NCBI GenBank assembly: GCA_030167145.1
Contig: CP126532.1
Span: 3,060,001 to 3,092,000 of the forward strand
Length of the DNA: 32,000 nt
Direction: 5' to 3'
Origin: Ktedonobacterales bacterium
GTDB lineage: Bacteria > Chloroflexota > Ktedonobacteria > Ktedonobacterales > JADMIN01
Numbering within the stretch: the first letter of the stretch is position 1; each line of letters starts with the position of its first letter. Under the pieces are notes generated by a model. That model saw only the letters and a program-made list of their open reading frames with translations, did not search any database and was not told the origin of the DNA. Positions 3,220 through 32,000 of this stretch are shown in pieces. The position numbers and the translations under genes are program-made.

Positions 3220-3221
3220 AC

Positions 3222-3263: not shown

Positions 3264-3296
3264 ATATGTCTGTATGCCGTTCCTAACTAGCGTGCG

Positions 3297-8165: not shown

Positions 8166-10657
8166 GGCAACGTGAACCACATCGTTGTTCCGCGCCCCAC
8201 CACGCTTTTCACGTGAATCCGCCCCCCGTGCAACTCTATCAATTTGCGGCTGATGTACAATCCAAGGCCCAGGCTCACGTCAGCGGTCTGCTGCGCCGTG
8301 ATACCTGGAACGCGGTAGAATCGGTCGAACAGGTGCGGGATCGCTTCGGCGGGGATGCCAGGTCCTTGATCCTGGATACTCACACGAATCTCCTGCACAG
8401 CCTTCGCGCGCGCGCCGTGCTGTCGCGTGCCATTGCGCTTCATCACACGACGCACCTCCACCTGAACGGGTCGCTCGGCGGGAGAATACTTGAGGGCATT
8501 GGAAAGCAAATTTGCCACCACCTGCGTAATGCGGACCGCATCAGCCTCGGTTTCAAGCGGTCTACCAGGAAGCTTTGCCACAATGGTACGTCCTGTCGCA
8601 GTCGCCTGACCGTCAATTACCCGCTGACAGAGCGCAACCACATCACACGGCTGCTTATCAAGAGTCAGTGTTTCGGATTCCATCTTCGCGGCGTCGAGCA
8701 GGTCATTCACCAGGATGTTGATCCGTTCGATATCCTGTTCGATAGGCGCGAACGCCTCAAATATGACCGCTTTGCCCCGCGCGAGACCGATACGCAGCAT
8801 CTGCACGCGTGCTTTCATACTCGTGAGCGGCTGCCGCAGCTCATGCGCGACAACCTGGAGCATGTCCGAGCGTTCGCGTTCCATCTGCCGCTCGTCGGTC
8901 ACATCGCGGAACACGCACACCGCGCCAGTAATGCGATCTGCCGCGTCGCGGATAGGCGCCCCACTGATACTCACGCCAATGTCGCGCCCATCCAGAGTCC
9001 GCAGGGTGAGATCCAGCCGGTTGGAGCCAGTCAGCACCTCGCCACGCAGCGCACGATGTACAGCCCACTGCTCCTGCGAAATCAGCTTTCCCTGCATATC
9101 ACGAGCTGGCATCAAAGGCACCCGCTCTGAAAGCGATCTCGCCGTGAAATCTGGCTCGGCATCCATGGCAAGCAGAGTACGCACTGTCGGATTCATGCGT
9201 GTCACTCGGCCCTCAGCATCATATGCGGCGATACCGTCGGCCACCGCCTCAAAGATGGCCTCCAGCTCACTTGCCCGCGCTCGTGCCGCTCGCTCCAACT
9301 GCCGCCGTTCAGTCACCTCATGGCACACGATCACCGCGCCCTCAATCCGCCCGTCCGCTGCTCGTAGTGGCGCTGCGCTTACCAGTACACTATGCTCCTT
9401 GCCCCGCAGGTCAAAGAACCGCTCTTCCATCGCTTTGCTATCACCCAGCGATTGACCACGCAGCGCATAGGACGTTGCCCAATGCTCCGGCGGTATGAGC
9501 TGCCCCGCGACATCGTATACGTCGAGCTGCCCTACTGCTTTGTTGGCCTCATCATCCGCTATGTCACGCGTGGTATCGAATCCCAACATACGTCGCATCG
9601 CGCCGTTGGTTCGCACCACCGTGCGGTCAGGCGCATAGACCACGACGCCATCAGTGATCGCCTCGAATATCGTCGTAAGCTCATGCGCGGTCGCCACTGC
9701 ACTCCGTTGCAGTTGCCGCCGTTCGGTAATTTCGAGGAAGGCGACGACACCGCCTATGATGGCTCCGCTCGCGTCGCGCATCGGCGCCGCATTGTTCAGT
9801 ATCGCCTTACGCTTGCCCGCGAACGACTCTATCTCTATTTCTTCGCCAATCACCACCTCACCATGTTGCAGTGCGCGCGCAAGCCCCCAATCTTCCGCCG
9901 CTATGCGGCGTCCATCCGGCCACCATCCACGAAGCTCAGCATAACGTTCGATGCGATCTGGCAGAGACGCATCTTCGCCCCACAACTCTGTAAAGACCGG
10001 ATTGAGCATGGTGGCGCGCCCCTGAGCGTCCGCGATTGCCACTCCAACCGGGAGCACATCCAGGAGTTGCTGGAGATGTACGTTATCCGCTTGCTCTGCG
10101 GTCGGCGTTTGCTGACGTTCCGCCTCAACGCGATCAGGATGATCAATGTGCGCACCCACCCAGGCGCGAATCACCCCGTCATCTGTGCGCACCGGCACGC
10201 CATGAACGAGAAACGTGCGATATACACCATCGTGACGCCGCAGACGATGCTCCGAGGAAAAGGTGCGCTCCTCGCGGACGGCGGTAGCCCACTCCCGCCA
10301 CACGCGGGCGCGGTCATCGGGATGGATCACCGTCCAGAAGCCCTGTTGACGCAGCTCCTCAGCACTCTGACCCGTATAGGCGCGCCAGCTTGGGCTGTCT
10401 TGCTGCGCCAGCCCTTCGCCGTTCACCGTCCAGGTGATCTGCGCCAATGCCTCGACCAGCGCACGGTAATGACCGTCGCTCTGGGCATCGTGAGGTGCTG
10501 GCAACATCATACCGGAATGAATCTGAGGGTGTGAATCATGAGACCCAGCGGAGGCTTCCCCAGATGGCGTGGGTCCGAGACCTTGGGCAGAAGGCTCCGG
10601 CTGGTTATACCCCATGTCATATCCGCACTTTCTTGGCAACTGCGAACACACATACAT
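8132..10657 (-). CDS. Multi-PAS sensor histidine kinase
   Basis: Four PAS-like modules (…AQITWTVNGEG, LLDVLPVGVAIADAQGR, IFEAITDGVVVYAPDRT, IFEAVADGIAAYDAEGR). HisKA H-box VVAHELRQPLTSM. HATPase_c region DQGPGIP...GLGLYISRKLIELHGGRI. The start is uncertain (10657, 10615 or 10510); none has a good SD. Confidence 0.85.
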   Translation of the reverse strand: MYVCSQLPRKCGYDMGYNQPEPSAQGLGPTPSGEASAGSHDSHPQIHSGMMLPAPHDAQSDGHYRALVEALAQITWTVNGEGLAQQDSPSWRAYTGQSAEELRQQGFWTVIHPDDRARVWREWATAVREERTFSSEHRLRRHDGVYRTFLVHGVPVRTDDGVIRAWVGAHIDHPDRVEAERQQTPTAEQADNVHLQQLLDVLPVGVAIADAQGRATMLNPVFTELWGEDASLPDRIERYAELRGWWPDGRRIAAEDWGLARALQHGEVVIGEEIEIESFAGKRKAILNNAAPMRDASGAIIGGVVAFLEITERRQLQRSAVATAHELTTIFEAITDGVVVYAPDRTVVRTNGAMRRMLGFDTTRDIADDEANKAVGQLDVYDVAGQLIPPEHWATSYALRGQSLGDSKAMEERFFDLRGKEHSVLVSAAPLRAADGRIEGAVIVCHEVTERRQLERAARARASELEAIFEAVADGIAAYDAEGRVTRMNPTVRTLLAMDAEPDFTARSLSERVPLMPARDMQGKLISQEQWAVHRALRGEVLTGSNRLDLTLRTLDGRDIGVSISGAPIRDAADRITGAVCVFRDVTDERQMERERSDMLQVVAHELRQPLTSMKARVQMLRIGLARGKAVIFEAFAPIEQDIERINILVNDLLDAAKMESETLTLDKQPCDVVALCQRVIDGQATATGRTIVAKLPGRPLETEADAVRITQVVANLLSNALKYSPAERPVQVEVRRVMKRNGTRQHGARAKAVQEIRVSIQDQGPGIPAEAIPHLFDRFYRVPGITAQQTADVSLGLGLYISRKLIELHGGRIHVKSVVGRGTTMWFTLPYSSGSISPVS

Positions 10658-10779
10658 CCAAATCTGGCATCATAGTGCGAAGGAGAGCAGTACAGAACCG
10701 ACACAGCATTGTGTGTGGCTTCTGCGCGCCGTACCGATCATACGCTGTTGATTTCGCGTATGACGTTCAGGGCATGTGG

Positions 10780-10807
10780 AAAAGGCCCCGCGAGTACGGA
10801 GCCTTTT
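10780..10807 (-). terminator. Rho-independent terminator candidate downstream of the thiolase gene
   Basis: Minus strand reads AAAA-GGCTCCG-TACTCG-CGGGGCC-TTTTCC. This is a 7-bp stem with one G-U pair, a 6-nt loop and a T4 tail, about 90 nt after the stop. Confidence 0.5.
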
Positions 10808-10895
10808 GACTACCAGCAAATTAGATGCCGATGCAATCGCTGTGCGCATCACTCCTTCCCGCAGCAAGGAAAGGGGATTCTACGAGGCAAATGCG

Positions 10896-12038
10896 CTATA
10901 TCCGCTCGATGATCGTCGCCGTGCCCAGCCCGCCGCCGCAGCACATCGTCTCCAGCCCGTAGCGCCCCCCGCGCCGCTCCAGCTCGTGCAGCAGCGTCAC
11001 CGCCAGCCGCGCGCCCGAACACCCCAGCGGATGCCCCAGCGCGATAGCGCCACCGTTCACGTTCACGCGCGCCATATCCGGGTGTAGCTCGCGCTCCCAC
11101 GCCAGCACCACCGACGCGAACGCCTCGTTGATCTCGATCAGGTCCATCTGCTCCAGCGTCAGCTCCGCTTTCGCCAGGATCGCCTTCGTCGCCGGAATCG
11201 GCCCCGTCAGCATCGTCACTGGGTCCACGCCCACCACCTTCTGCGCCACAATCCGCGCGCGTGGCCGCAGTCCGAGCGCCGCCGCTTTCTCCGGCGTCAT
11301 CAACAGCAGCGCCGCCGCGCCATCGCTCACCTGGCTGCTACTCCCCGCCGTAATCTTGCCGTCAGCCTTGAATGGTGGTTGCAACGTCGCTAGCCGTTCC
11401 ATCGTCGTATCCCGGCGGATACCCTCATCCTTCGTGAACACCGTCCCATCTTCTAGCGCCACCGGCATGAGCTCGCGGTCGAAGTAGCCCGCATCCTGCG
11501 CCGCCGCCGCCAATTGGTGACTCCGCAGCCCAAAGGCGTCCAGTTCCTCACGGCTGATGTTCCACTGGTCGGCGATCATCTCCGCCGAGACGCCCTGATG
11601 CACCATCGGGTAGAGTTCCATCAGCGACGGCGGGAACGGATTGCCACCCGTCGCAATAGACGACCCAATCGGCAGCCTCGTCATGCTCTCCACGCCGCCC
11701 GCAATTGTCACATCGCAGACCCCCGCCTGGATCAGATTCGCCGCGAAGTGCAGCGCCTGCTGTCCCGAACCGCACTGGCGATCCACCGTCGTCGCGGGCA
11801 CCTCCATCGGAAACCCCGCCTGTAGCACTGCGTTGCGCGCGATATTCAAGCCCTGCTCGCCCACCTGGCTCACGCAGCCAAACACCACATCCTCGACTAT
11901 CGCCGCCTCAATCCCCGCGCGCCGCACCAGTTCGCGCAGCGCCATCGCTCCCAGCACCACCGGATGCGTATCCTTCAGCGCGCCGTTGCGCCGCCCAATC
12001 GGCGTCCGCACGGCCTCGACGATCACCACGTCACGCAT
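10896..12038 (-). CDS. Acetyl-CoA C-acetyltransferase (thiolase II)
   Basis: MRDVVIVEAVRTPIGRRNG..., active-site VDRQCGSGQQA, NVNGGAIALGHPLGCSG, CCGGGLGTA. GGAGG precedes ATG 12038. The 12149 start in the track adds 37 non-conserved residues. Confidence 0.9.
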   Translation of the reverse strand: MRDVVIVEAVRTPIGRRNGALKDTHPVVLGAMALRELVRRAGIEAAIVEDVVFGCVSQVGEQGLNIARNAVLQAGFPMEVPATTVDRQCGSGQQALHFAANLIQAGVCDVTIAGGVESMTRLPIGSSIATGGNPFPPSLMELYPMVHQGVSAEMIADQWNISREELDAFGLRSHQLAAAAQDAGYFDRELMPVALEDGTVFTKDEGIRRDTTMERLATLQPPFKADGKITAGSSSQVSDGAAALLLMTPEKAAALGLRPRARIVAQKVVGVDPVTMLTGPIPATKAILAKAELTLEQMDLIEINEAFASVVLAWERELHPDMARVNVNGGAIALGHPLGCSGARLAVTLLHELERRGGRYGLETMCCGGGLGTATIIERI

Positions 12039-12117
12039 AGCTCGCACCTCCGCTCTCGTATTCGTCTCGTACTCGTTTCTCGTATTTGCTCGCATGCCTG
12101 CGCACATCGTGTGCTCT

Positions 12118-12960
12118 TCAAGGTACATTATATGCCGCACATCGCTCATTCACCCTGGCTCGCCTCGCGTACCGACGCGCCTCGTTCAGCATATAGCGCA
12201 CGAACTCCAATGTCGCGGCGAAGTCTGCCAGATCAGCGCGCTCGCGCACAGCAACCGCTGGATTCGGACGTCCCGCCCACGTGCGATCAATCAGCCCCAC
12301 CCACGCAGCATCCAGATGCGCCTTCGCCCATTCGGCCCCCGCCCGCTTCGAGCCAGGGTAGCCGGTATGCAGATCGTGCAGCATCCGGCAATATTGCAAA
12401 ACAACATAGCTTTGATAGAATCGGTTATTGTATTCATCGGGATGCGCCAGAATCTCATCCCCCCACTTCCGCATCTTTGCCAGGATTTCCCCACGCAGCG
12501 CCACCACCGGCATCGCGTCAACCAGCGTCACGGGCGCAGGCCCAGCCAGCGTCACGCCATGCTCGCGCAGCACCCACCGCACCACGATGGTATTGCAGTG
12601 CGCCGACTGAATCAGTTCGCTGCTCCCGTGATCCAGAAACCAGAGCCAGGCATCGCGCTCCGCATGCTGCCGCAAGGCGCGCTGGGGATAGTACGACCCC
12701 TCCAAATGCTGTGCCCACGCGCTGTCGCGACCATACACCCGCTCATGCATGCCATGTAAAGCCGCGACCTCGCCCTCCGCCAACTCCTCTTTCACCACGA
12801 CAATGAAATCCACGTCGCTATGCGCATCGAAATCACCCACCGCGAACGACCCTTGCAGATACGCCCCCACGAAATTGCCGCCAAGAATCGTCCGCACACT
12901 CTGCGCCAGATCCGCCAGCACGCTATTGAGTTCGGCATAGGGCGTCGGAAGTTTCTCCAC
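12118..12960 (-). CDS. Nucleotidyltransferase of the aminoglycoside adenylyltransferase (ANT/AadA-like, NTase + DUF4111) type
   Basis: NTase motif YLQGSFAVGDFDAHSDVDFIVVV, with an AadA-like helical C-terminal half. GAGGAGG lies 7 nt before GTG 12960. Confidence 0.75.
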   Translation of the reverse strand: MEKLPTPYAELNSVLADLAQSVRTILGGNFVGAYLQGSFAVGDFDAHSDVDFIVVVKEELAEGEVAALHGMHERVYGRDSAWAQHLEGSYYPQRALRQHAERDAWLWFLDHGSSELIQSAHCNTIVVRWVLREHGVTLAGPAPVTLVDAMPVVALRGEILAKMRKWGDEILAHPDEYNNRFYQSYVVLQYCRMLHDLHTGYPGSKRAGAEWAKAHLDAAWVGLIDRTWAGRPNPAVAVRERADLADFAATLEFVRYMLNEARRYARRARVNERCAAYNVP

Positions 12961-13196
12961 CTCGTCACCTCCTCACCAAAGCGAAACAACCCACGCCAAC
13001 ACCATATCCCTGCCAGACGCCCTCCACCTCTCAGATTTTTGCCCATCCTTCCACGCGCCATCACATCACCTGAAGCACTCCACCTCCTTGCCCGCTCCTC
13101 ATCCATGTCCCCACCTGTCCCCATTCGACCACATCTGTCTCCGTATACCCCTCCCCCGCATGCTACACTACCCACCAGCGCCGTCCACCACCGCGC

Positions 13197-13264
13197 AAGG
13201 AGCAACGCGCATGCAACAAAAAATCGGCCAAAGGAGCAACGCGCATGCAACAAAAAATCGGCCA
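13197..13264 (+). repeat. Perfect 34-bp tandem duplication (2 units)
   Basis: AAGGAGCAACGCGCATGCAACAAAAAATCGGCCA occurs at 13197-13230 and identically at 13231-13264. Confidence 0.95.
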
Positions 13265-13283
13265 CTGGCACTTCACAAAATAC

Positions 13284-13493
13284 AAAAATCGGCAGAATCG
13301 GCAGAATCGGCAACTCCGGTGGGGGCGGACATTCGTGTCTGCCGGGCAAATATCGGCCATATCGGCAACTCATATCTGCGGCGAAAACGGCGAAAATCCC
13401 CCAGACATCTCCGGACGATTCCCGTCATTCACCCCCATGCAACCGCAAAAATCGGCAGAATCGGCAACTCACACAATCGGCCATATCGGCCAC
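13284..13493 (+). repeat. Array of 9-nt-periodic micro-repeats (ATCGGCNNN and CGGCGAAAA units)
   Basis: ATCGGCAGA x2 plus ATCGGCAAC (13288-13314). ATCGGCCAT-ATCGGCAAC (13352-13369). CGGCGAAAA x2 (13379-13396). ATCGGCAGA-ATCGGCAAC (13451-13468). ATCGGCCAT-ATCGGCCAC (13476-13493). Confidence 0.9.
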
Positions 13494-13745
13494 CGCCTCT
13501 GCGCGCCCCTCTCCCCGTGGGGCGAGCAACGCGAAGCCCCGCCGAGCGCGTAGCCCCTCCGAGCCGTTCCGAGGAGGGGCCGGGGGAGAGGTTCTTACCC
13601 CACCCGCTTGCCCTCGCGCTGCCAATGCACTACCATATGCACGCGCACCATGCACGCGAACACGCAACCTGACCGCAACATCATCTCGTCCATATACCCC
13701 CGCCATTCGTGAGCGGAAACGTCATCATACAAGGAGCAACCCATC

Positions 13746-15065
13746 ATGGCGGATATTCGACCCTTCCCCGGCATACGCTACGCCCAGAGCGACAACCTCG
13801 CCGCCCTCGTCACTCCCCCCTACGACGTCATCTCGCCCGACGCCCAGCAGCGCTACTACGAACGCGACCCCCACAACATCATCCGCCTGGAGCTTGGCCG
13901 CGAAACGCCCAGCGATGACGAACTCGATAACCGCTACACCCGCGCCGCCCGCGACTTCGCCGAATGGCGGCTCCACGGCATCCTCGCCCAGGACGCCCCC
14001 GCGCTCTACCTCTACGAACAGCGCTTCACCGTCACTGGCGCGCAGCATCGCCGCCTCGGCCTGCTCGCCCGTGTGCGCCTGGAGCCGTGGGAGGCGGGCG
14101 TCATTCTGCCACACGAGTACACCCTCAGCAAGCCCAAAGACGACCGCCTCAAGCTATTTCGCGCCTGTGCCGCCAACCTCAGCCCGCTCATGACGCTCTA
14201 CGACGACCCCACCGGCGAACTCGCCCGCGACCTCGAAACCATCACCCAGACCGCACCCCTAGCGGACTTCGCCGACGAAACCGGCGAACAACACCGCCTC
14301 TGGTCGCTCACCGATCCCGCCGCCACAGCGCGCGTCGCCGCCTTCTTCGCGGATCGCCAACTGTATATCGCCGACGGCCACCATCGCTACGAAACCTCGC
14401 TCACCTATCGCGACGAACAGGCGACGCTCCGCAAAGAACCGCTCGCACCCGACGACCCCGCCAACTTCGTCCTCATGTCGCTCTCCGCCATCGAAGACCC
14501 CGGCCTCGTCGTGCTGCCCACCCATCGCGTCCTGCGCGGCCTTGATCTCACCCGCCTTGCCGACCTGGATGCCGCGCTTCAGCCATCCTTCGCGCTGGAG
14601 CCGCTGCCCACCCTCGATGACGCCACCGCTGTGCTGGCCCGCGCCCAGGCGGCAGGCGACACCGCCTTTGTCCTCGTCCGCCCCGAAGGCGACCCGCTGC
14701 TCCTGCGCCTCACCGACGCTGGCCGCGACGCGATGGCCCAGCTTACCGGCGAGCAGGCCAGCGCCTCCGCCGCCTGGCGTCGCCTCGACCTCGCCGTCCT
14801 GCATGAGCTAGTCCTCAACCGCGCCCTCGGTATCACGCCCGATATGGTGCGCGCTGGCGAGCACGTCACCTATACCCGCGACGCCGACGCCGCCATCCGC
14901 GACGTGCGCGACCATCGCGACGGCGCGGCGCTGGCCGTGCTGGTCAATCCCACGCCGCCCGCCGCCATCCGCGACGTAGCCCGCACCGGCGACCGCATGC
15001 CCCAGAAGTCCACCTACTTCTATCCCAAACTCATCACCGGCCTGGTCATCAACCCGCTCTGGTGA
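13746..15065 (+). CDS. DUF1015 family protein
   Basis: MADIRPFPGIRY...PPYDVISPD...YIADGHHRYETSL...MPQKSTYFYPKLITGLVINPL, characteristic of DUF1015. AAGGAG lies 9 nt before the ATG. Confidence 0.85.
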   Translation: MADIRPFPGIRYAQSDNLAALVTPPYDVISPDAQQRYYERDPHNIIRLELGRETPSDDELDNRYTRAARDFAEWRLHGILAQDAPALYLYEQRFTVTGAQHRRLGLLARVRLEPWEAGVILPHEYTLSKPKDDRLKLFRACAANLSPLMTLYDDPTGELARDLETITQTAPLADFADETGEQHRLWSLTDPAATARVAAFFADRQLYIADGHHRYETSLTYRDEQATLRKEPLAPDDPANFVLMSLSAIEDPGLVVLPTHRVLRGLDLTRLADLDAALQPSFALEPLPTLDDATAVLARAQAAGDTAFVLVRPEGDPLLLRLTDAGRDAMAQLTGEQASASAAWRRLDLAVLHELVLNRALGITPDMVRAGEHVTYTRDADAAIRDVRDHRDGAALAVLVNPTPPAAIRDVARTGDRMPQKSTYFYPKLITGLVINPLW

Positions 15066-15222
15066 ACTATATCGGAGGTTTCTCCATGTCGCTCGATTCC
15101 CAAGTCCGCCTGCGCGGACTTCGCGGCCAACGGCCATCCAGGCGCGGTTTCAACCGCCAGTCCGCTGTGATACCATGTTGGCAGACAGTAATGTAGCGTA
15201 GAAAGACGGAGACGCAAAAGCG

Positions 15223-16524
15223 ATGATGATACTCGTCGTCGGCGCCGGACTCGCCGGCCTCACCTGCGCCAAAGCGCTCGTCGAAGCCGGACACGATGTG
15301 CGTGTGCTCGAAGCCGCCGATCATGTCGGTGGCCGCGTGCGCACCGACGCCAGCGCCGACGGCTTCCTGCTGGATCGTGGCTTCCAGGTGCTCTTCACCG
15401 CGTACCCCGCCGTCCAGCGTCATCTCGATCTGCCCGCGCTCAAGCCGCATGCCTTCCTCCCCGGCGCGGTGCTGATCCGCGACGGCAAGTGGCATGAACT
15501 GGGCGACTATCACCAGCGGCTCACCATGCTCGGCCCCACCCTCGCCAATCCGCTGCTGCCCTTCGGCGACAAGCGGCGAACGCTGCGCCTGCGCCGCTAT
15601 GTCCGCCGCCGCTCGCTCGACGCGCTCTTTCACAAGCCGCTCAAAAGCCGCAAGAGCAGCGGCGACCTCTCCGCCTATGATGAGCTGCGCCGCCGTCACT
15701 TCAGCGATAGCGGCTTCATAGATAGCTTCGCCCGCCCGTTCTTTGGCGGCATCTTCCTCGACCGCGAGCTAACTACCAGCGCCCGCGCCTTCCTCGCCAC
15801 CTTCAAGATGCTTGCCAGCGGCAAAACCGTCATCCCCGAACTCGGCATGGGAGCGATCGCCGATCAACTCGCCGCCAAACTTCCCGCCAGCGCCATCCGC
15901 CTGGAGACCCGCGTCGAGAGCATCGTCGAAGCCGATGGCCGCGCCGTCGGCGTCACCCTCACCGGCGGCGAAGAGATGCAAGGCGACGCCGTCGTCATCG
16001 CCACCGACGCCCAGACCGCCGAACGCCTGACCAAACGCGACCTCCCCAGCGACCCCGTTCCGGTCACCTGCGTCTACTTCGGCACCACCGAGAGCCTCTA
16101 CTCCGGCCCCAAACTGCTGCTCAACGCCAACCCCGATGCCTTCGTCAACAACGCCGTGCAGCTTTCCAACCTCTCGCCGGCCTATGCGCCCACAGGACAG
16201 CATCTGCTCTCCGTCACCGTGCTGGGCATGCCAGAGCTGACCGATACCGAGCTAGCGAGCCGTTGCCGCGACGATATGGCCTCCTGGTTCCCTGGCAAGG
16301 ACCTCACCAGACTGCGCCACCTCGCCACCTATCGCATCCGCTTCGCGCAGTTCCGCCAGCCCCCTGGCATCTTCGAAGGCCTGCCCGCCAACGCCACCTC
16401 GGTCGAGGGACTCTTCGTTGCCGGTGAATACACCGAAGCCAGCAGCATCAACGGCGCGATGACCAGCGGCGAGAAGGCTGCCCAGGCCGTCCTTGCCTCC
16501 TTCGAGGCCGCCAGCGAAGAATAG
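15223..16524 (+). CDS. FAD/NAD(P)-binding amine-oxidase/phytoene-desaturase-like oxidoreductase
   Basis: N-terminal Rossmann motif ILVVGAGLAGLTCAKALVEAGHDVRVLEAADHVGGRVRT. C-terminal FVAGEYT...SINGAMTSGEKAA. Confidence 0.85.
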   Translation: MMILVVGAGLAGLTCAKALVEAGHDVRVLEAADHVGGRVRTDASADGFLLDRGFQVLFTAYPAVQRHLDLPALKPHAFLPGAVLIRDGKWHELGDYHQRLTMLGPTLANPLLPFGDKRRTLRLRRYVRRRSLDALFHKPLKSRKSSGDLSAYDELRRRHFSDSGFIDSFARPFFGGIFLDRELTTSARAFLATFKMLASGKTVIPELGMGAIADQLAAKLPASAIRLETRVESIVEADGRAVGVTLTGGEEMQGDAVVIATDAQTAERLTKRDLPSDPVPVTCVYFGTTESLYSGPKLLLNANPDAFVNNAVQLSNLSPAYAPTGQHLLSVTVLGMPELTDTELASRCRDDMASWFPGKDLTRLRHLATYRIRFAQFRQPPGIFEGLPANATSVEGLFVAGEYTEASSINGAMTSGEKAAQAVLASFEAASEE

Positions 16525-16538
16525 GAGTGTGCGTTCAG

Positions 16539-17267
16539 TCAATCAATGAAGTCTTCGGTGAGCCACACCTGCCCATTGATGTAGATGATGCCCAGGCCCA
16601 CCTGCGTAAACGCGGCATGGATGATGTTCCAGTGATGCTCATATGGCGTGAGTGGCTCGGCCATCATCCCGTCGTCAATCTGCGTGATGCCGCCATCCAC
16701 GCCCAACCCGCGTGCGATGCCGATATTCTCAGCCCAATAGACGAACGAGACGCCAGTCGCTTTCAGGCGCTGCAATGGCGCCGTGCCATCGCTGCTCATA
16801 TGGGTCATCTTCTGATGCTGGTACATATCGCACGAATGCTGGCGCGAAGCGACGGCCAGTTTCGTGTTGAGCTTGAGCGGCCCTACGCCCGCTGCCGCGC
16901 GATGCTTGTTGAGCAGCCCCAGTAAGAACTGCTCGGCTGCGACATCGGTCGAAGTGATCGTGCAGCCGTTGCCAGTGGTGGCCGCTGTGGGCGTGGGATG
17001 AACCGCCGTGGCGCTGGGGATGGGGGTCGCGCTGGATGCCTGCGCCACGAGTCCAGCGAGCGCGCCCTGCCCGCCCTGCGCGTGTGGCGTTGGTTGGGGT
17101 TGCCCTGCGCCGAAAGCCCGCGCCAGCCCCAGTGTGCCCAGCGCGATCACCGCCACCAGCACCACCACTGTCCCCGCCAGCGCCAGCAGCCGGGGCCAGC
17201 GTTCGCGGCTCAGCACGAACGAGAGGCCCAGCGCGGTGTACTCCGCGAACCGTGGCGGCAGCCGCAT
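16539..17267 (-). CDS. Membrane-anchored CAP (SCP/PR-1, YkwD-like) domain protein
   Basis: N-terminal TM helix (LLALAGTVVVLVAVIALGTLGL), a low-complexity linker, then LLNKHRAAAGVGPLKLNTKLAVASRQHSCDM...YWAENIG...HWNIIH. Confidence 0.8.
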   Translation of the reverse strand: MRLPPRFAEYTALGLSFVLSRERWPRLLALAGTVVVLVAVIALGTLGLARAFGAGQPQPTPHAQGGQGALAGLVAQASSATPIPSATAVHPTPTAATTGNGCTITSTDVAAEQFLLGLLNKHRAAAGVGPLKLNTKLAVASRQHSCDMYQHQKMTHMSSDGTAPLQRLKATGVSFVYWAENIGIARGLGVDGGITQIDDGMMAEPLTPYEHHWNIIHAAFTQVGLGIIYINGQVWLTEDFID

Positions 17268-21979: not shown

Positions 21980-23287
21980 CTACCGGCGTGGGGCGCGGCG
22001 GGCGTTGGCGACGTTGCTGGGGCGGTAGTCAGTGCCTTTGATGTCGGCGATACGCACCAGGCTCGCGTCGGAGAGGCGCGAGCGGATGCGCTCGTCCATC
22101 TGCGAGTGTAACCGCTGGTTGGTGGTGATGACGGTCGGCAGACGGTAGTTGTAGCGGTAATTGATCAGTTGAAAGAGCTTTTCCGTAGCCCACGCGGTGT
22201 TGTTCTCGGCTCCCAGGTCATCCAGCACCAGCAATTCGACTTCGCGGATGCGGTCGAACATCTCGTCGTAGGAAAGCTCGCTATTCGGGGCGAACGCGGC
22301 GCGCAGATGATCGAGTAGTTCGGGCACGATGGCGAAGTAGACCGATGATCCGCGTTCGAGCCGGTAATGGGCAATCGCTGCCGCTAGATGGGTTTTGCCG
22401 GTGCCATAGCTGCCCATCAGCACCAACCATTGCCAGCCGGGAGTCGCGCCGTTGGCGAGTTGCCACGCCGCCAGACGCGCATCTTTGATGCTGGCGGTGA
22501 TGCGCGTGTTCTCAGTATCGAATGTCTCAAATGTCTTGTTGCTGAAGGGCTTGAGGCTGAAGAAGCGATCTAGCTCGCTGAGGCGGATCTCTTCTTCGCG
22601 CTGTCGCCGCTCCTCGAACTCGCGTTCTTTGCAGCTACACGGCACCGGCTGCCCAAACGAAGGATGCCCCATCGGCACATTCACCCGCACGTAGCCCGCG
22701 CCGCCGCAATGCGGGCAAACTGGCGCCGGTGGGATTGGCTGCATCTCATTCTCGGCGTCGTGTTCGCGCGCATGGGTGCGTTGCTTGCGCCGCGCGGCGA
22801 GGTGCACTAGATAGCCTTCCATCGCCGCGCCTATTGGCTCGATGCCGCTTGGCCGGGCGAGCTGTACGCGCCCACGTGCGGCGCGCGATGGAGATGGTGG
22901 CACATCCAGCGCGTCTGCGTCGGATTCCTGGCGCGCGGACCTGCCGCGACTTCGCCCGCTGCCCGTGTGGGGCGCGTCCCCGGGCTGCCCACTGTCACGG
23001 CTAGACCAGACGAGGATCTTCTCGGATGCTGCCACGGGTTCTGCACTATCCGAGCTATCGGGCACGTTGCCAGCGCCATTGCTGAGAGCGGCGGTGGGCG
23101 CTTGTCCGGTGGCCAGGGCATCAGCTTCGATGGGGGGAAGAAACTGGCGCACGCGGCGAGTTCGCGCGGTGGCGCCGGGGGCGGTCCATGCGCCAGGGCG
23201 TCTGACCGAGGGACCGCGTTGCCGCGCTGGCGGCGCGGGATCGGGTTGTTTCGAGCGTCTATCGGGAGTATCGTTCGTAGGGGCCAT
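21980..23287 (-). CDS. DnaC/DnaI-like AAA+ helicase-loader ATPase with Zn-ribbon and a long disordered N-terminus
   Basis: Walker A LVLMGSYGTGKTHLA, Walker B ELLVLDDLG, sensor TTN. Zn-ribbon upstream: CPHCGGAGY...PVPCSC. GGGGGAG lies 7-8 nt before ATG 23287. The 23602 start in the track would overlap the upstream gene by 340 nt. Confidence 0.8.
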   Translation of the reverse strand: MAPTNDTPDRRSKQPDPAPPARQRGPSVRRPGAWTAPGATARTRRVRQFLPPIEADALATGQAPTAALSNGAGNVPDSSDSAEPVAASEKILVWSSRDSGQPGDAPHTGSGRSRGRSARQESDADALDVPPSPSRAARGRVQLARPSGIEPIGAAMEGYLVHLAARRKQRTHAREHDAENEMQPIPPAPVCPHCGGAGYVRVNVPMGHPSFGQPVPCSCKEREFEERRQREEEIRLSELDRFFSLKPFSNKTFETFDTENTRITASIKDARLAAWQLANGATPGWQWLVLMGSYGTGKTHLAAAIAHYRLERGSSVYFAIVPELLDHLRAAFAPNSELSYDEMFDRIREVELLVLDDLGAENNTAWATEKLFQLINYRYNYRLPTVITTNQRLHSQMDERIRSRLSDASLVRIADIKGTDYRPSNVANARRAPRR

Positions 23288-23966
23288 ACGCTTGCTCCCC
23301 CTTTCCATCACTATGCCAGCGCTTGAGTATCGCGCGAATGTAGCTCCACCGGCGTTTGTTCTGCTGCACCGCCAGCCGGAACGCCTCTTCAATCCATTCT
23401 GGCGGATAGGTTTCCGCTGCCTCGCGCAGTTCTTCGGCCAGCAGCGGCGGCAGCATACCAATATTCTGCTCGTAGAGTGCGAAGATGTTGGGACGCTCGG
23501 CTTCGAGGACGACGAGCCGCTGCCCGGCGAATGCGCTCGCGGCGGGGCCTTCGAGATCGAGCAGCAGATCCGGGGTCTGCTCGCCGCTTTGCAGTTGCGC
23601 AATGGCTCGGCGGCTGCGCTCCGTATGAAAGAAATACCACGTGACCAGTTCGTCGTCTACCTGCACCCGCAGCCGCAGGAGTGTCCCGCGCGCCAGCGCC
23701 GCGTCGAGCGCCGCGCGGAGCCGTTCTTCCAGCGGGCGGGGGTCGCCCGTGCGCTGGAGCGTGCGCCGCAGCACGGGGTCGGCGAGCATCTCGCGGTCGC
23801 TGGCGCAGCGCGGGCTGCCATACTTGCGATAGAGCAGCCAGAAGAGATAGAGCGTCACCTTGAGTTCGTTAAGGTCTTCGATCTCTGGCAGGATGGCGGT
23901 GAAGAATTGCTCCGGCAGCGGGATGAACGGACTCGCGCCGGAAGGGAATCCGGTGAAGGTGGGCAT
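23259..23966 (-). CDS. DnaD-domain (DnaB_2-type) replication initiation/helicase-loading protein
   Basis: C-terminal NIFALYEQNIGMLPPLLAEELREAAETYPPEWIEEAFRLAVQQNKRRWSYIRAILKRW is the DnaD C-terminal signature. GGAGAGGAG precedes the ATG. Only 20 nt separate it from the dnaB stop. Confidence 0.8.
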   Translation of the reverse strand: MPTFTGFPSGASPFIPLPEQFFTAILPEIEDLNELKVTLYLFWLLYRKYGSPRCASDREMLADPVLRRTLQRTGDPRPLEERLRAALDAALARGTLLRLRVQVDDELVTWYFFHTERSRRAIAQLQSGEQTPDLLLDLEGPAASAFAGQRLVVLEAERPNIFALYEQNIGMLPPLLAEELREAAETYPPEWIEEAFRLAVQQNKRRWSYIRAILKRWHSDGKGEQAYGPYERYSR

Positions 23967-23986: not shown

Positions 23987-26611
23987 CTAGTAGTCCGGCG
24001 TGCGCAGATCGAGATCGCGGTAGCGGGTCTGCGCGGCCTGGAAGAATAAGCTCACCTGCCCTACGGGGCCGTTGCGGTGCTTGGCGACGATGATGTCGGC
24101 GATGTTCTTGCGGTCGGTGTCGGGATTGTAGACCTCGTCGCGGTAGATGAACATGACAATATCGGCGTCTTGCTCGATGCTATTATGTAAGGTCACATCT
24201 CCCGCGACGAAGTTGTGCAGACCGTCCACTGTCAGGTCGTACACGTCATCCTCGCCGTCCGGTTCAATCGAGATGATCTCATCCCAATAGACATCGCTCG
24301 CAGCTAGGCGCGCAACTTCTGCCGAACCCACAACCGCCGCGAGGCGCGCCGCACGCTCGCGTCCGACATTTTGGCGATAGAGACTCGTGCCACAATAGGC
24401 GTTGCCCAACGCGGCCTGCATCTGTCTGTCTGTGATTCCGGCCACCTTTCGGGCTGGTAACGCATGCAGTTGCCAGATCTCACGCGGCACAACATCGCGA
24501 TTGGTGTTCTCGACCCGTTGCGTGAGGTGGTCTTTCATAGACGCCGCGTGTACCACTTTTAACTCGCCTAGTGGTCCGACCTCTGTAAGGAATCGCAGAA
24601 TATCTGACTTGCCGCTAACGGTCACATGAAATTGGTCGCGGCCTTTCCCTGGTTGCGGGTGTTGCGATAAGGTTCCATTGATACCGAGCCGCAACAGCAG
24701 AGATTGCACATTGCGCGCCAATTCAAGACTGCTCGACGCATAATACACATTTGCATAATGCGCTTTTCCCCGGCTCAGGTGGATGCACCCATCGGTAGAC
24801 CAGAGGTGGCGCAAGAAGCGTGCGATGCCTGTCGCTGGCTGCGCGAACACCTTGTCTGGCACGCGCTTCTCATACGAGCGCAGGCCGAAGACGCCCAATT
24901 CATCCAGCCATGCCGCGATGGGGTTGCGCTTGTTGTGGGTCAACCGCTCGCTTGCGGTCAGGTACACCTGATACCAGGAGCGTTCCTGTGAGATGCGTGG
25001 CGTAACCGCATCGCTGAAGACTGCTACGGCGAGATTCGCCACGGTCTCAGCCAGTGTGGCCTCACGTGTGGTGTACTGCATGACATGGTTTGGCAATGTG
25101 CAGCCATCGCCGATCAAATGGCCGAGCAGCGCCAATTCCTCGTCGCGCATCGTCGCCTGCTCAGGGCTGGGCAGCGTGCGAGGCAGCGCCAGCCGCACGC
25201 CTGGGGAGACTTCATCCAGCCGCCGCCAGCCTTCGATGGTCAGGAACTTGTGATTTGCTGTCGCGCGCACACTGCGGCCAAGTCGGGTGGTCAAGCGGTA
25301 GACTGGCTTGTGTCCGGTCGCGAAGGCACGGCTGACAGTAGCTGGCTCCAACTTCCACGTCTCGGTGTTCAGCGCGAGCACACGGAAGCCCGACTGCCCC
25401 ACCAGTTCACGGATCGGGCGATACGTGCCGGAATCGGGCAGATAGACGGGCGATTCCCCGGTAATACACCCAGATTCGCGGAGGTCGCTGAGTTGCGGGC
25501 GCTTATCGGTGCGGCTCTCGACGGCGCGCGAGAGCTGTGAGAGCGCCAGCACTGGCACGTTCAACTCGCGGGCCAGCACCTTCAGCCCGCGGCTGATGTG
25601 CGAGATTTCTTGCACGCGATTCTCGTGCCCTGGTCCACCGCCAGTTCCCTGCATCAGTTGCAGATAGTCCACGATGAGCAGGTCGTAGGGATGCTCCATC
25701 ATCAGGCGGCGGGCTTTGCTGCGCATCTCGCTGAGCGTGATGCCTGCGGTGTCTTCGATGTAGATCGGCTTATCGGAGAGCCGCGCCACCGATTCGCTGA
25801 TGCGCTCCCACTCGTCGTCGTCGAGATAGCCGGTGCGCAGCCGCTGCTGGTCTATCATCGCATCCATCGAGAGCAGGCGCCCGACGAGTTGTTCTTTGCT
25901 CATCTCCAGGCTGAAGATGGCCACGCCATAGCCTTTGTTGGCGGAATTGTGCGCCAGCGAGAGCGATAGCGCGGTTTTGCCCACGCTCGGCCGGGCGGCG
26001 AGAATCACCAGATCGGATTTTTGCAGGCCGCTGGTCATCTTGTCGAGGTCGGCGAAGCCGGTGGCCACGCCCACGACCGTGCCGCGCTGCTCTTGCAGGT
26101 GGTCCAGCGTATCCAGGTAATCGCGCAGGATGACGCCGATGGAGTCGAACTCCGTGCGGCTGGAGCGCTGACTCACCTCGAAGAGATATTGCTCCGCCTG
26201 CTCGATAGCGGTATCCGCGTCGGGTTCGTTGTAGGCGACGCCCGCGATCTGCCCCGCCGCGTGAATCAAGCGCCGCAGCACCGAGGTGCGTTCGACGATC
26301 TGCGCGTAGTGCTTCACGTGGCGGCTGGTGGGCACCTGGTTGGCGAGCGAGCTGACGTAGCTGATGCCGCCGACTTCTTCTAGCTTGTCGCGGCGGGCCA
26401 GTTCGTCGGTCAGGGTAATTAGGTCTGCTGGCTCGCGTGTCTCGAAGAGGTCGAGCGCGGCCTGATAGATCGTGCGATGCGCCTCGCGGTAGAAGTCTTC
26501 AGGGCGCAGGAAATCGGCAATCTGGACAATGGCTTCGGGGTCAATCAGCAGGCTTCCCAATACCGAGGCCTCTGCCTCCACATTCTGCGGCAGCAGTTTC
26601 TCCACAGCCAT
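23987..26611 (-). CDS. dnaB: Replicative DNA helicase DnaB, interrupted in frame by an intein
   Basis: N-terminal LPQNVEAEASVLGSLLIDPEAI, Walker A ARPSVGKTALSL, Walker B LLIVDYLQLM, C-terminal SIEQDADIVMFIYRDEVY...AKHRNGPVG. ATG 26611 has GGAGG 11 nt upstream. The ORF is also open from GTG 26680. Confidence 0.9.
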   Translation of the reverse strand: MAVEKLLPQNVEAEASVLGSLLIDPEAIVQIADFLRPEDFYREAHRTIYQAALDLFETREPADLITLTDELARRDKLEEVGGISYVSSLANQVPTSRHVKHYAQIVERTSVLRRLIHAAGQIAGVAYNEPDADTAIEQAEQYLFEVSQRSSRTEFDSIGVILRDYLDTLDHLQEQRGTVVGVATGFADLDKMTSGLQKSDLVILAARPSVGKTALSLSLAHNSANKGYGVAIFSLEMSKEQLVGRLLSMDAMIDQQRLRTGYLDDDEWERISESVARLSDKPIYIEDTAGITLSEMRSKARRLMMEHPYDLLIVDYLQLMQGTGGGPGHENRVQEISHISRGLKVLARELNVPVLALSQLSRAVESRTDKRPQLSDLRESGCITGESPVYLPDSGTYRPIRELVGQSGFRVLALNTETWKLEPATVSRAFATGHKPVYRLTTRLGRSVRATANHKFLTIEGWRRLDEVSPGVRLALPRTLPSPEQATMRDEELALLGHLIGDGCTLPNHVMQYTTREATLAETVANLAVAVFSDAVTPRISQERSWYQVYLTASERLTHNKRNPIAAWLDELGVFGLRSYEKRVPDKVFAQPATGIARFLRHLWSTDGCIHLSRGKAHYANVYYASSSLELARNVQSLLLRLGINGTLSQHPQPGKGRDQFHVTVSGKSDILRFLTEVGPLGELKVVHAASMKDHLTQRVENTNRDVVPREIWQLHALPARKVAGITDRQMQAALGNAYCGTSLYRQNVGRERAARLAAVVGSAEVARLAASDVYWDEIISIEPDGEDDVYDLTVDGLHNFVAGDVTLHNSIEQDADIVMFIYRDEVYNPDTDRKNIADIIVAKHRNGPVGQVSLFFQAAQTRYRDLDLRTPDY
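24182..25468 (-). mobile_element. DnaB intein (429 aa) with LAGLIDADG homing-endonuclease domain
   Basis: The N-extein ends ...DLRESG and the intein starts at Cys (CITGESPVYL; TGT at 25468-25466). Block B is ATANHKF. LAGLIDADG motifs are LLGHLIGDGC and FLRHLWSTDGCI. The intein ends ...FVAGDVTLHN (AAT at 24184-24182) and is followed by +1 Ser (SIEQDAD). Confidence 0.9.
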
Positions 26612-26708
26612 AGCAATATGACCCTCCGTGCCCGTGGGAATGCCAGCGCGCACGTCTACACGCGCCACTGGCGGACACACCCTACCGCTAGAACGCCTAT
26701 TCTAAACC

Positions 26709-26717
26709 ATTATAGCA
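26709..26717 (-). promoter_or_regulatory. Extended -10 promoter element (TGcTATAAT) reading toward dnaB
   Basis: Plus-strand ATTATAGCA is TGCTATAAT on the minus strand, 29 nt upstream of GTG 26680. The -35 is poor (GGCACA at 17-nt spacing). Confidence 0.3.
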
Positions 26718-26817
26718 TCGGAGCCGTGCGTTGTGCCCCACTCAGTGAAAACGAAGGGGCAAAGGTGAGAGTACCTGAGCGGGCGTAATTACGCAAATCG
26801 GTAGGCGATGCACCACA

Positions 26818-26947
26818 TGTGGAAAGCTGTGGATATGTGGATATGTGTGGGGCGTGGGGGATGATCTGGGCGGGGTTTCTGGCGGTTATCCCATGTTATC
26901 CACAACAGATGCGACAAAATCTGCGGTTATCCACGACTTTATCCACG
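26818..26947. promoter_or_regulatory. DnaA-box cluster
   Basis: TTATCCACA 26896-26904 (perfect). TTATCCACG 26927-26935 and 26939-26947. Inverted TGTGGATAT 26828-26836 and 26836-26844. Weaker TGTGGAAAG 26818-26826 and TTATCCCAT 26886-26894. Confidence 0.65.
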
Positions 26948-27039
26948 CGATATACACGACTGCTTGGGCTAGGACGTGTGGGGCGAATCGGGTCTAAGCG
27001 GTGGTGAGAGGGAAGAGGCACGGGAGCGTGACAGGTGCG

Positions 27040-27080
27040 AGACAACACGAAAGACGCGGCTGCCCGTGGGCATCGCGTCT
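27040..27080 (-). terminator. Terminator candidate downstream of acpP
   Basis: Minus strand reads AGACGCG-ATGCCCACGGGCAGC-CGCGTCT, a 7-bp outer stem plus inner GCCC/GGGC pairing, followed by TTCGTGTTGTC. The hairpin starts 38 nt after the stop. Confidence 0.45.
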
Positions 27081-27118
27081 CGCGTTGCGTGCAATCTGAA
27101 GCTGTGGAAAAGAATAGC

Positions 27119-27367
27119 CTACGGCTGATGCTCGTAGATGTACTCGACGGCCTCGCCAACAGAGGTGATCTTTTCGGCATCTTCGTCGCTGATTTGCAGC
27201 TTGAACTGCTCTTCGAGCGACATAATCATCTCCACCAGATCAAGCGAATCGGCGTTGAGATCCTCGGTGAACGAGGCTTCCTCTTTGACATCCGCCTCGT
27301 CAACGCCAAGCTGCTCGGCGATAATCGGCTTGAGCTTGACCAGGATATCTTCTTTGGACATGGACAT
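27119..27367 (-). CDS. acpP: Acyl carrier protein
   Basis: 82 aa, acidic. The phosphopantetheine site is [14 protein letters not shown]. Confidence 0.92.
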
Positions 27368-29854: not shown

Positions 29855-30775
29855 CTATAGCCGTTTTTGTCTGCGCACCATCGGCAGCCGCGCCGCGCCG
29901 AGCGCGTGCCCGCAGCCAGCGCAGACATAATAGCCTTCGCTCTCGCGGTATTCGAGTTGCGCGAGGGGAAAGTGCAGATAGCAGATGCCGCAGCGGGTGG
30001 CGTTGCCCTGGCTGGCCGTCGCGCGGTCGCCCTGGAAGAGCGTGCGCAGCGAATCAATCAGTGGTCCGACCTCACCACGCACGTCGCGCCGCACATCCAG
30101 CGTATCTGCTCGTTCCACGTCATCGAGTGGCGAACGTTCTCCGGACGCGTTGCGTTCCCTGAAGCCGCCAGCGGCTCCGTTGTGCCCATTCAGATTGCCA
30201 TTCATCCGCGCTCCCATCTCCGGCCTGGGAAACTCACGCTCTGGCGCGCGGCGGCGTTCGGATGGCGAGAACGGCGTCAGCCCTGGATGCGAGCTGGCGT
30301 CTCGCGCACGACCACCGTGGCCGTTGCGTCCACTGCTATATCCATTATGCATGTGTTCATGAGTGTCTGAAGTATCCGGCATGGACGATGGTGTAGGGGC
30401 AGGCGCTAGAGGTTCGGCCTGGTCGGGAGTATCCGCGGCGGCAAGACCTACCGGCTCCGGATCCGCTGGCACAGATGGCGCGGCTGGTGGCGCTTCCGCA
30501 ATCGCCAGGGGCGCGGCTGGCGCGGCTTCGGTGAGCGTAACCTCAGTTGGCGCGGCTGCTGCTGGCGCGACAGGCGTTTCGCTGGCGCGCCTGGCCTGGC
30601 CATGCGCTACCGGCTGGCTATTCTGGCTCCGTTCGCCAGGGGAACGCTGCGGTCCATTGCGGCCCCGGCGGGCATTGCCGCGCTTATCACGATTCTTATG
30701 TGCATTACCCACGTTGGTCATCCTCTCAGTTTTGACGGCCGATACGCTCGTTGCAATGTCCACATCCGCCCCCAC
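29855..30775 (-). CDS. Hypothetical low-complexity (Ala/Pro/Arg/Gly-rich) protein with C-terminal CxxC...CxxC zinc ribbon
   Basis: The C-terminus reads RCGICYLHFPLAQLEYRESEGYYVCAGCGHAL. The start is uncertain: GTG 30775, ATG 30721 (SD abuts it), or GTG 30712 (GAGAGG 9 nt upstream). Confidence 0.55.
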   Translation of the reverse strand: MGADVDIATSVSAVKTERMTNVGNAHKNRDKRGNARRGRNGPQRSPGERSQNSQPVAHGQARRASETPVAPAAAAPTEVTLTEAAPAAPLAIAEAPPAAPSVPADPEPVGLAAADTPDQAEPLAPAPTPSSMPDTSDTHEHMHNGYSSGRNGHGGRARDASSHPGLTPFSPSERRRAPEREFPRPEMGARMNGNLNGHNGAAGGFRERNASGERSPLDDVERADTLDVRRDVRGEVGPLIDSLRTLFQGDRATASQGNATRCGICYLHFPLAQLEYRESEGYYVCAGCGHALGAARLPMVRRQKRL

Positions 30776-31008
30776 ATGCGCGCGTCTCGTCCCTGCGCCA
30801 GTATACCCAGGCGACCGGCCTACCTATCACATCCCAGCGCAGCGGACGAAAGAGAGCTTCTCCCGTCCACCGCGCCGATCAGCGCCTATGCGCGTCAATG
30901 TCTCATTATATCTCTCGGACGAGTCGTCAGTATGCGAGGTACCGTCATTTGCGCATCATTTCTTTCTATAGGTGTGATGCCCATGGGTGGAGCGTTGTCC
31001 GGCGAACA

Positions 31009-31100
31009 ATTTTCGCCGTTTTCGCCGCAATTTTGAGCTGTGGCAGTTGCCGGAGTTGCTGGTTCTTTGAGTTTGCATTCTCTTTGCCGTTTTCGCCGCA
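31009..31100 (-). repeat. Inverted copies of the 13.3-kb nonamer-repeat family
   Basis: 31009-31029 ATTTTCGCCGTTTTCGCCGCA is the exact reverse complement of 13377-13397. 31086-31100 repeats the 15-nt core. 31046-31063 is GTTGCCGGA-GTTGCTGGT; the wider stretch around it (31044-31061) is the reverse complement of CAGCAACTCCGGCAACTG, which contains GCAACTCCGG as at 13310-13319. Confidence 0.9.
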
Positions 31101-31431
31101 GCCTCGGCTGTATTGCGGATCTACAAAAATAGGACGGACATAGCGCGAGCGAGCGGTTCATACCGCGCCTGAATGGCGTGTCGCCGCGAAACCCGCCTGC
31201 GCGGGTTGGGAAGAGAGTGGTGTCCGCACCAATGAGTAAAAGTGCATCGTGGCCGAGCGCGCGTCTACCGGTTTCATGCCATATGCCTCCCCTGGTAGCC
31301 ATCCCTTTGCCTGGTCTGCTACACTAATCGCGCGCAGGCCTTTATGGATCGTGGTATCAAGTAGAATCACGTTCGCTTTCTAGCTCATCGCAGTCACCAG
31401 CAAGATAGATACACTCGAAAGGAGAAGCTGA

Positions 31432-32000
31432 ATGACTGACATCAAGCTCTTCCGCATTGGACAAAATCAAGTCTGCGAACTCGCAGGCCAATCGGTTGCC
31501 ATTGAGAAAACGCTTCAGGAGATTATGGAGCGCCATCTTGATGCACTGCTAGGCGTCCGCTTTCTCGCCTCCGAGTATAGCACTGGCAAAGTGCATGGGG
31601 GGCGTATAGATACCCTTGGTATTGACGAAAATGGCAGCCCTGTTATAGTTGAATACAAGCGTGCATCGAACCAGAACGTGATCAATCAAGGCCTATTCTA
31701 TCTCGACTGGCTTTTGGATCACCACAAAGACTTCGAAATGTTAGTGTTGAAGCGCTTCGGACCTACAGCCGAAGAAGGCGTTGATTGGCGCTATCCGCGC
31801 CTGCTCTGTATCGCGGGCGATTTCACCAAATACGATGAGAAGGCAGTCCAGCAGATTCCGCGAAATATCGAGTTGATCCGCTACAAACGCTATGGCAATG
31901 ACCTTCTTCTGCTCGATCTGGTGAATTCCATCACCGAGCAGCCTCTCGAAGAACGCAATGTCCAGAACGGCGCCCTTAAATCGAAGCACCTCTCTAGCGA
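31432..32000 (+). CDS. NucS/DUF91-like PD-(D/E)XK nuclease-domain protein, 3'-truncated by the window
   Basis: My own translation (not in the ORF track because no stop is reached): MTDIKLFRIGQNQV...KVHGGRIDTLGIDENGSPVIVEYKRASNQNVINQGLFYLDWL. It shows the D...E-x-K nuclease core. GGAG lies 7 nt before the ATG. G+C is about 50%. Confidence 0.7.
   Translation, partial: MTDIKLFRIGQNQVCELAGQSVAIEKTLQEIMERHLDALLGVRFLASEYSTGKVHGGRIDTLGIDENGSPVIVEYKRASNQNVINQGLFYLDWLLDHHKDFEMLVLKRFGPTAEEGVDWRYPRLLCIAGDFTKYDEKAVQQIPRNIELIRYKRYGNDLLLLDLVNSITEQPLEERNVQNGALKSKHLSS

Follow-up and report, generated by a model that had tools for sequence, protein, structure and literature searches.

A conserved DnaA-box cluster upstream of the dnaB operon in Ktedonobacterales, a probable DnaA-binding regulatory region outside the replication origin

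The replicative helicase gene dnaB of a Ktedonobacterales bacterium (Chloroflexota; source chromosome of 5.07 Mb) is preceded by a dense cluster of DnaA boxes, and this cluster is a real, conserved element that is found at a density far beyond chance. It lies in the 507-bp non-coding gap at positions 26612-27118 of the window (the whole 32-kb stretch of DNA that was analyzed), which has the 3′ end of acpP on its right and the start of dnaB on its left. We favor, with moderate confidence, the reading that the array is a DnaA-binding regulatory region outside the origin, situated in the promoter region of an operon of dnaB, a dnaD-like gene, and a dnaC-like gene. It is best grouped with the DnaA-box clusters and DnaA-regulated promoters already known from outside the origin, the proposed target here being the replicative helicase operon. 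Strong boxes occur at high density in the intergenic region and include a pair with a 3-bp gap, and in the alignment described below the association between boxes and gene is conserved among relatives, a feature by which the class of regulatory clusters is recognized.

The closest DnaB sequences assign the window to the order Ktedonobacterales, and an exact protein match links it to a contig of 5,069,600 bp (JGI 3300045419 Ga0494333_323); the NCBI version of this genome is a metagenome-assembled genome of 5,069,607 bp with OJF49_ locus tags, in which the window spans 3,060,001-3,092,000. For the comparison, the window was aligned with the dnaB loci L001, L002, L004, L005, and L006 (alignment A1), whose DnaB proteins are 66 to 80% identical and whose GC content ranges from 50 to 67%. 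Within the 130 bp at 26819-26947 of the window, five 9-mers lie within one mismatch of TTATCCACA, accompanied by two or three weaker ones. The boxes are arranged in two opposed arrays. In the distal array, two plus-strand TTATCCACG boxes with one mismatch each lie in tandem, 3 bp apart and in a 12-nt phase, and make up a double box; the GTGGA core of the distal member (26939-26947) is invariant in all six Ktedonobacterales sequences of A1, as is GTGGATA in the second member (26927-26935). The perfect TTATCCACA box (26896-26904, plus strand) is located 31 nt from the double box, and a box is also present at this +31-nt position in L001, L004, L005, and L006. A weak box with two mismatches (TTATCCCAT, 26886-26894, plus strand) is conserved only in part. 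The promoter-proximal array, opposed to the distal boxes, consists of two minus-strand ATATCCACA boxes with one mismatch each, at 26836-26844 and at 26828-26836, which overlap by one base; read on the plus strand, the pair appears as two copies of TGTGGATAT having one T in common. The TTATCCACATATCCAC core of the former is kept in 6/6 loci. Next to this pair is a weak box with two mismatches at 26819-26827 (minus strand, CTTTCCACA; TGTGGAAAG on the plus strand), which is not conserved in the relatives. Thus, all five boxes within one mismatch that the preliminary description had reported in 130 bp, including the perfect one, were recovered; as for its weak boxes, the one at 26886-26894 was found as reported, whereas the other, placed at 26818-26826, was one base out of register.

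The frequency of boxes was then compared with chance expectation. The whole window contains 10 boxes with at most one mismatch versus 2.84 ± 1.52 in shuffled sequences, and none of 100 dinucleotide-preserving shuffles reached 10. In first-order Markov simulations (n = 300), the densest 130-bp segment never held more than two boxes, and the Poisson probability of at least five boxes in 130 bp is about 3 × 10−11. Furthermore, a box scan that covered 71.7 kb of the source contig (−16.1 kb to +55.6 kb, counted in window coordinates) yielded no cluster besides that at 26819-26947. These data indicated that the earlier judgment of a cluster unlikely to arise by chance was correct.

The box-bearing gap is bordered on the right by acpP (27119-27367, minus strand), and rpmF, fabD, asp23, nusB, and acpP all lie on the upstream side of the cluster on the same strand as dnaB. 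A putative acpP terminator hairpin (27042-27088, minus strand; −33.5 kcal/mol, z = −3.1) is found 3′ of acpP, and it is probably a terminator that insulates the dnaB promoters. On the other side of the gap, dnaB (23987-26611, minus strand) encodes a replicative helicase, interrupted by a LAGLIDADG intein, that was identified with Pfam and with the NCBIfam model NF005852 (1215.8 bits versus a cut-off of 780). Its start is the ATG at 26611, where the JGI gene call is 874 amino acids (aa) long, and a Shine-Dalgarno sequence, GGAGGG (26622-26627, minus strand), is located 10 nt 5′ of this codon. The homing-endonuclease intein that splits the gene is about 450 aa in size and is inserted after an ...LRESG motif.

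Downstream of dnaB are the genes for a 235-aa DnaD-domain protein (23259-23966, minus strand; DnaB_2/TIGR01446 by Pfam and NCBIfam; WIG60204.1, OJF49_002952) and for a DnaC/DnaI/IstB-like AAA+ ATPase, a putative helicase loader (21980-22822, minus strand; Pfam IstB_IS21; JGI call of 280 aa). Since the ATPase scores below every curated NCBIfam cut-off, for the DnaC, DnaI, and IstB models alike, "dnaC" can serve only as an approximate name. The "dnaC" open reading frame (ORF) can also be extended to 540 aa from an upstream TTG, and its product may represent a distinct loader subfamily that is paired with the DnaD-domain protein. As for RNA elements, no Rfam family reached the gathering threshold (a search at E ≤ 1 gave a single match at chance level), no tRNA was found in the tRNA search, and the fold of the dnaB 5′ untranslated region was not significant (z = −1.5).

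The box cluster was present 200 to 460 bp upstream of dnaB in every Ktedonobacterales locus with enough upstream sequence, and each relative carries at least one copy of the perfect TTATCCACA. A further locus, L082, was left out of this argument because it derives from the same organism as the window (100% identity across the intergenic region) and adds nothing on conservation. In the dnaB sense, the layout shared in A1 starts with two or three GTGGATAA boxes in a 12-nt phase (3-bp gaps) and a further box 31 nt on from them, followed by a spacer between the arrays of about 40 to 150 nt that varies in both sequence and length. Then come the inverted TTATCCACATATCCAC box pair, the TTGCnn −35 element of a predicted promoter, P1, 22 to 31 nt past the inverted TTATCCACATATCCAC, and the extended −10 element of a second predicted promoter, P2, about 50 to 60 nt beyond P1, after which the leader and the Shine-Dalgarno sequence follow. 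About 29 of the 41 invariant non-coding columns in A1 fall within DnaA boxes, and the remaining ones mostly belong to the P1 and P2 hexamers.

The gene upstream of the cluster is acpP in the window and other genes in the relatives; this neighbor is co-directional in two loci (the window and L001) and divergent in two others (L004 and L006). Since the upstream neighbor changes between loci, the cluster travels with dnaB. Among 74 other dnaB loci, from other Chloroflexota, Negativicutes, and further groups, none had as many as three boxes within 700 bp upstream of the gene. It had been proposed that absence of the boxes from close relatives would speak against the element; the cluster was kept in L001, L002, L004, L005, and L006. 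Thus, a non-chance DnaA-box cluster tied to the dnaB operon, the premise common to all three readings offered in the preliminary description, is strongly supported.

Two promoter-like elements are located between the boxes and dnaB. P1 (26768-26796, minus strand) consists of a −35 element, TTGCGT (26796-26791), a 17-nt spacer, and a −10 element, TACTCT (26773-26768), and TTGCnn and TAC(T/G/A)CT are found exactly 17 nt apart in 6/6 loci of A1, with a spacer of variable sequence. Transcription from P1 is predicted to start near 26761. P2 is an extended −10 element, TGCTATAAT (26710-26718, minus strand), at the most AT-rich spot of the intergenic region, which reads TGnTATAAT or TGGTATACT in 5/6 loci and TATACT in the sixth. 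A generic consensus promoter scan called neither P1 nor P2, and at the level of a consensus-based prediction we regard both as conserved sigma-70-type promoter elements that point into dnaB. All boxes lie upstream of the P1 −35, with centers at −62 to −182 from the predicted start; the proximal boxes are 20 to 40 bp upstream of the −35 and are centered at about −62 to −79.

Two further features of the preliminary description, a G-rich run and a 12-bp palindrome, GCGTAATTACGC (26783-26794), are in place, as is the extended −10 (26718-26710 on the minus strand). The palindrome overlaps the −35/spacer region of P1; neither it nor the G-rich run is conserved in the relatives in A1, and both are probably incidental. 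Directly after the P2 −10 is an inverted repeat, TAGAA-N6-TTCTA (26689-26704, minus strand), which is shared by the window, L001, L002, and L004, the four loci of high GC, and is absent from L005 and L006; in L002, both arms differ (TGGAA/TTCCA). The repeat holds GAAT-N4-GTTC, a 7/8 match to GAAC-N4-GTTC, the LexA (Cheo) box that has been reported in Gram-positives and in Dehalococcoides. One possibility is an operator on the helicase promoter, for the SOS response or another system, and another is a hairpin at the 5′ end of the mRNA.

Among the three readings first offered, regulation of the operon has gained from the two conserved promoters directly downstream of the boxes, whereas the origin has lost ground, with its hallmarks missing. 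That DnaA binds the array, that the promoters are active, and which way regulation would act are inferences. In the regulatory reading, DnaA dimers would occupy the conserved double box, with its two 9-mers and 3-bp gap, together with the perfect box 31 nt away, and the oppositely oriented pair 20 to 40 bp upstream of the P1 −35 would serve as a second DnaA array. The two arrays would probably cooperate via DnaA oligomerization across the variable spacer. Occupancy would follow the abundance of DnaA-ATP and thereby set transcription from P1, and perhaps from P2, into the helicase/loader operon, such that the supply of helicase would be coupled to the status of the initiator; any titration of DnaA by the array would be a side effect.

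As to the sign of regulation, we lean towards activation, albeit with low confidence, because all boxes are located upstream of the −35, like the five boxes upstream of sda in Bacillus subtilis, where they are required for expression (PMC2533591). The box geometry resembles that of sda more than that of a roadblock repressor, and repression is equally compatible with the sequence. Two caveats apply to the regulatory reading: the boxes are 60 to 185 bp upstream of the P1 start, i.e., beyond the typical distance for simple repression, and the two opposed arrays also recall the left and right halves of the Escherichia coli oriC. The words "outside the origin" rest on the 72 kb of context and on a statement about related genomes (PMC13289182).

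An unlikely explanation is that the array serves chiefly to buffer DnaA, as do datA, DARS, or the DnaA-box clusters (DBCs) of B. subtilis; it would titrate DnaA or shift its nucleotide state and thus time initiation, its adjacency to dnaB being incidental to transcription. Dense, strong boxes are indeed the stated requirement for stable DnaA binding at the B. subtilis DBCs (PMC2533591), and deletion of those clusters leads to over-initiation (PMC3245932). Box pairs in the exact 12-nt phase are also common away from dnaA in metagenomes, among the matches listed. A scan for TTATCCAC-N4-TTATCCAC returned at least 120 metagenome loci (L085-L204), and 16 of the 120 matches listed lie within 3 kb of dnaA/dnaN; of the 21 listed loci that have 2.5 kb or more on each side, 5 are linked to these genes. 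In the tandem pairs among the matches listed, the gap mostly reads A-N-(A/G)-G, i.e., TTATCCACA followed by a 3-bp gap. With about one quarter of the listed pairs adjoining dnaA/dnaN, the scan suggests that metagenomes hold many unrecognized DnaA regulon or titration sites. Against a pure titration site stands the placement of the array, whose position and orientation are fixed with respect to the two conserved promoters and dnaB while the other flank changes; titration needs no such fixed placement, and we therefore disfavor it. Titration and regulation are nevertheless compatible, as several B. subtilis DBCs do both.

We consider it quite improbable that the cluster is the chromosomal replication origin or an origin module that has moved from dnaA to the helicase/loader operon. 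In this case, the two opposed arrays would be the assembly site from which DnaA opens the DNA nearby, and, if this were true, an origin beside the operon would allow the helicase to be made and loaded at one locus. Several features are in keeping with such a role: five to eight boxes in two opposed arrays are packed into 130 bp inside the 507-bp intergenic region, the cluster is conserved across Ktedonobacterales, it adjoins replication genes, and no other box cluster occurs in 71.7 kb. Among the listed metagenome clusters of at least five boxes, about two thirds have no dnaA nearby (many of the contigs being short), which means that an origin cannot be diagnosed from strong clustering.

The sequence hallmarks of an origin were then searched for. 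DnaA-trio modules were scanned for by permissive published rules (PMC8287927), namely, a box with at most two mismatches, a spacer of at most 16 nt, and three or more trios that keep the conserved middle base. The scan recovered the B. subtilis incC with nine trios as a positive control, and it gave candidates in 13/13 of the dnaA-linked metagenome clusters among the matches listed, including one convincing candidate at 63% GC. By the same rules, no module of a box and DnaA-trios was found at any box in the window, L001, L002, or L004, and the trio hits in L005 and L006 were minimal and none was conserved. An AT-rich unwinding element is lacking as well. The preliminary description had called the AT-rich stretch short for such an element, and we agree: only about 25 bp of the window reach 70% AT, and these coincide with the −10 of P2. 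The richest 40-mer (53 to 72% AT) is at P2 in each relative, and P2 ranks joint second among the 40-mers of the window (57% AT).

Strand composition and gene order were also considered. The raw skew on the left of the cluster reflects a local block and is thus weak evidence, for which reason we relied on an orientation-corrected fit, in which the skew at third codon positions is the sum of a strand term and a gene-orientation term. The strand term was negative on both sides, at −0.06 (17 to 27 kb) and −0.15 (27 to 44 kb), and the cumulative skew over 72 kb has no minimum at the cluster, although local skew is a mosaic and the test has low power at this scale, a point that counts in favor of the origin. 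The rpoBC and ribosomal-protein genes 20 kb away are on the plus strand, loosely divergent from the dnaB/acpP block on the minus strand, as would suit an origin; against it, the operons on both flanks share one strand, and a count of transcription units shows no orientation switch (7:7 to the left versus 5:3 to the right). Two candidate signals were tried and rejected. A gene-orientation switch counted by bases (about 62% minus on the left, about 75 to 85% plus on the right) was lost upon counting by transcription units and is not meaningful, and the strongly negative skew on the left of the cluster, once considered replichore-wide, was confined to a block between −2 and 17 kb when a longer stretch was examined.

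The absence of dnaA and dnaN from the window, previously noted, was borne out and extended to 72 kb: Pfam gene lists contain no dnaA, dnaN, parA, or parB from −43 to +29 kb of the cluster, and tblastn with E. coli DnaA gave no match in the window or among 84 loci. A study of Ktedonobacteria from 2026, in which the distance to dnaB is not given, described chromosomes with contiguous dnaA, dnaN, parA, and parB and with Ori-Finder origins that coincide with the main skew extremum (PMC13289182), a report that also argues against an origin at dnaB. Taken together, these results disfavor the origin reading for this cluster. The broader claim that Ktedonobacterales fire from, or also from, a dnaA-distal cluster devoid of trios or an obvious AT-rich element seems to us quite improbable as well.

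Finally, it is very improbable that some protein other than DnaA binds the 9-mers or that these are non-functional look-alikes of DnaA boxes: every relative has at least one perfect TTATCCACA, conservation peaks exactly over the 9-mers, the spacing obeys the DnaA double-box rule (PMC11317965), and no Rfam match or conserved ORF was found in the region.

Other features of the window were recorded on their own account. On the plus strand, third-codon C strongly exceeds G independently of gene orientation over approximately 1-17000 of the window, in a block that begins about 2 kb before it; the fitted term is about −0.32, against about −0.06 to −0.15 in the flanks, and strand composition is thus a mosaic. 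At the other end, a low-GC island (GC of 0.52 versus about 0.63) covers 31000-32000 and, in the source contig, extends past the window as far as about 35000 (L081, L083). It carries a DUF5655/NucS-like gene and two genes without a Pfam match, together with an isolated perfect DnaA box at 33484, and it was possibly acquired horizontally. An ORF at 29855-30775 (minus strand) has no Pfam match and bears a C-terminal zinc-ribbon-like CxxC...CxxC motif; only its last 116 aa are called by JGI, and a non-coding gap of about 1.2 kb (30206-31431) follows.

In a few model bacteria, DnaA is already known to act in transcription as well. Our analysis suggests that, in a large-genome, mycelial order of Chloroflexota, the initiator may be wired directly to an operon for the helicase and its putative loaders, and such wiring would provide a simple feedback between the initiation decision and helicase supply. 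The conserved fragment of about 370 bp is starting material with which DnaA binding and promoters could first be studied in Ktedonobacteria. For origin prediction, the locus gives reason for caution, as a strong box cluster beside a replication gene does not by itself make an origin.

We then compared the array with known systems. It shares its clustered, opposed, intergenic boxes with bacterial oriC regions, such as the opposed arrays of E. coli and the box plus DnaA-trio arrangement of B. subtilis; unlike these, it has no DnaA-trios, no AT-rich unwinding element, and no linkage to dnaA/dnaN in 72 kb, and over this distance the orientation-corrected strand term has the same sign on both sides of the array, low as the power of local skew is. 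Box clusters outside the origin are also known from datA and DARS1/2 of E. coli, which bind several DnaA molecules and, unlike the array here, are not tied to a conserved downstream promoter. Both datA and DARS are defined by their dependence on IHF or Fis and by their activities in ATP hydrolysis and ADP release, properties that cannot be read from sequence, and no sequence criterion for them carries over to Chloroflexota.

In Pseudomonas aeruginosa, transcription from the gidA promoter is regulated by DnaA boxes that precede it, and the array resembles this oriCII/gidA system in that an origin-like box cluster lies before a promoter; the role of the cluster there is to control the transcription of a cell-cycle operon (PMC13438810). 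The difference is one of location, since oriCII is within the oriC region beside gidA/parAB, whereas the array is at least 29 to 43 kb from any dnaA, dnaN, or parAB. In E. coli, DnaA binds as a dimer to two boxes 2 to 3 bp apart at almost all regulon sites (PMC11317965), and the regulon ties initiation to genes for replication and nucleotide synthesis. The conserved core of the array, a double box with a 3-bp gap, agrees with this arrangement; most E. coli regulon sites have fewer boxes than the Ktedonobacterales cluster, and E. coli dnaB is not named among the DnaA targets in the passages considered of that article.

In B. subtilis, six intergenic DnaA clusters are located outside oriC, several of which regulate the neighboring gene, and DnaA at promoters represses ywlC, yydA, and dnaB, the last being a loader gene in that organism (PMC2533591). 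Like these clusters, the array has dense boxes of the high-affinity type that are intergenic, lie beside promoters, and are conserved among relatives (PMC2533591, PMC3245932). It differs from them in its two opposed arrays, in its occurrence in Chloroflexota, and in its proposed target, a single operon that encodes the replicative helicase itself along with a DnaD-domain protein and a DnaC/DnaI-like ATPase.
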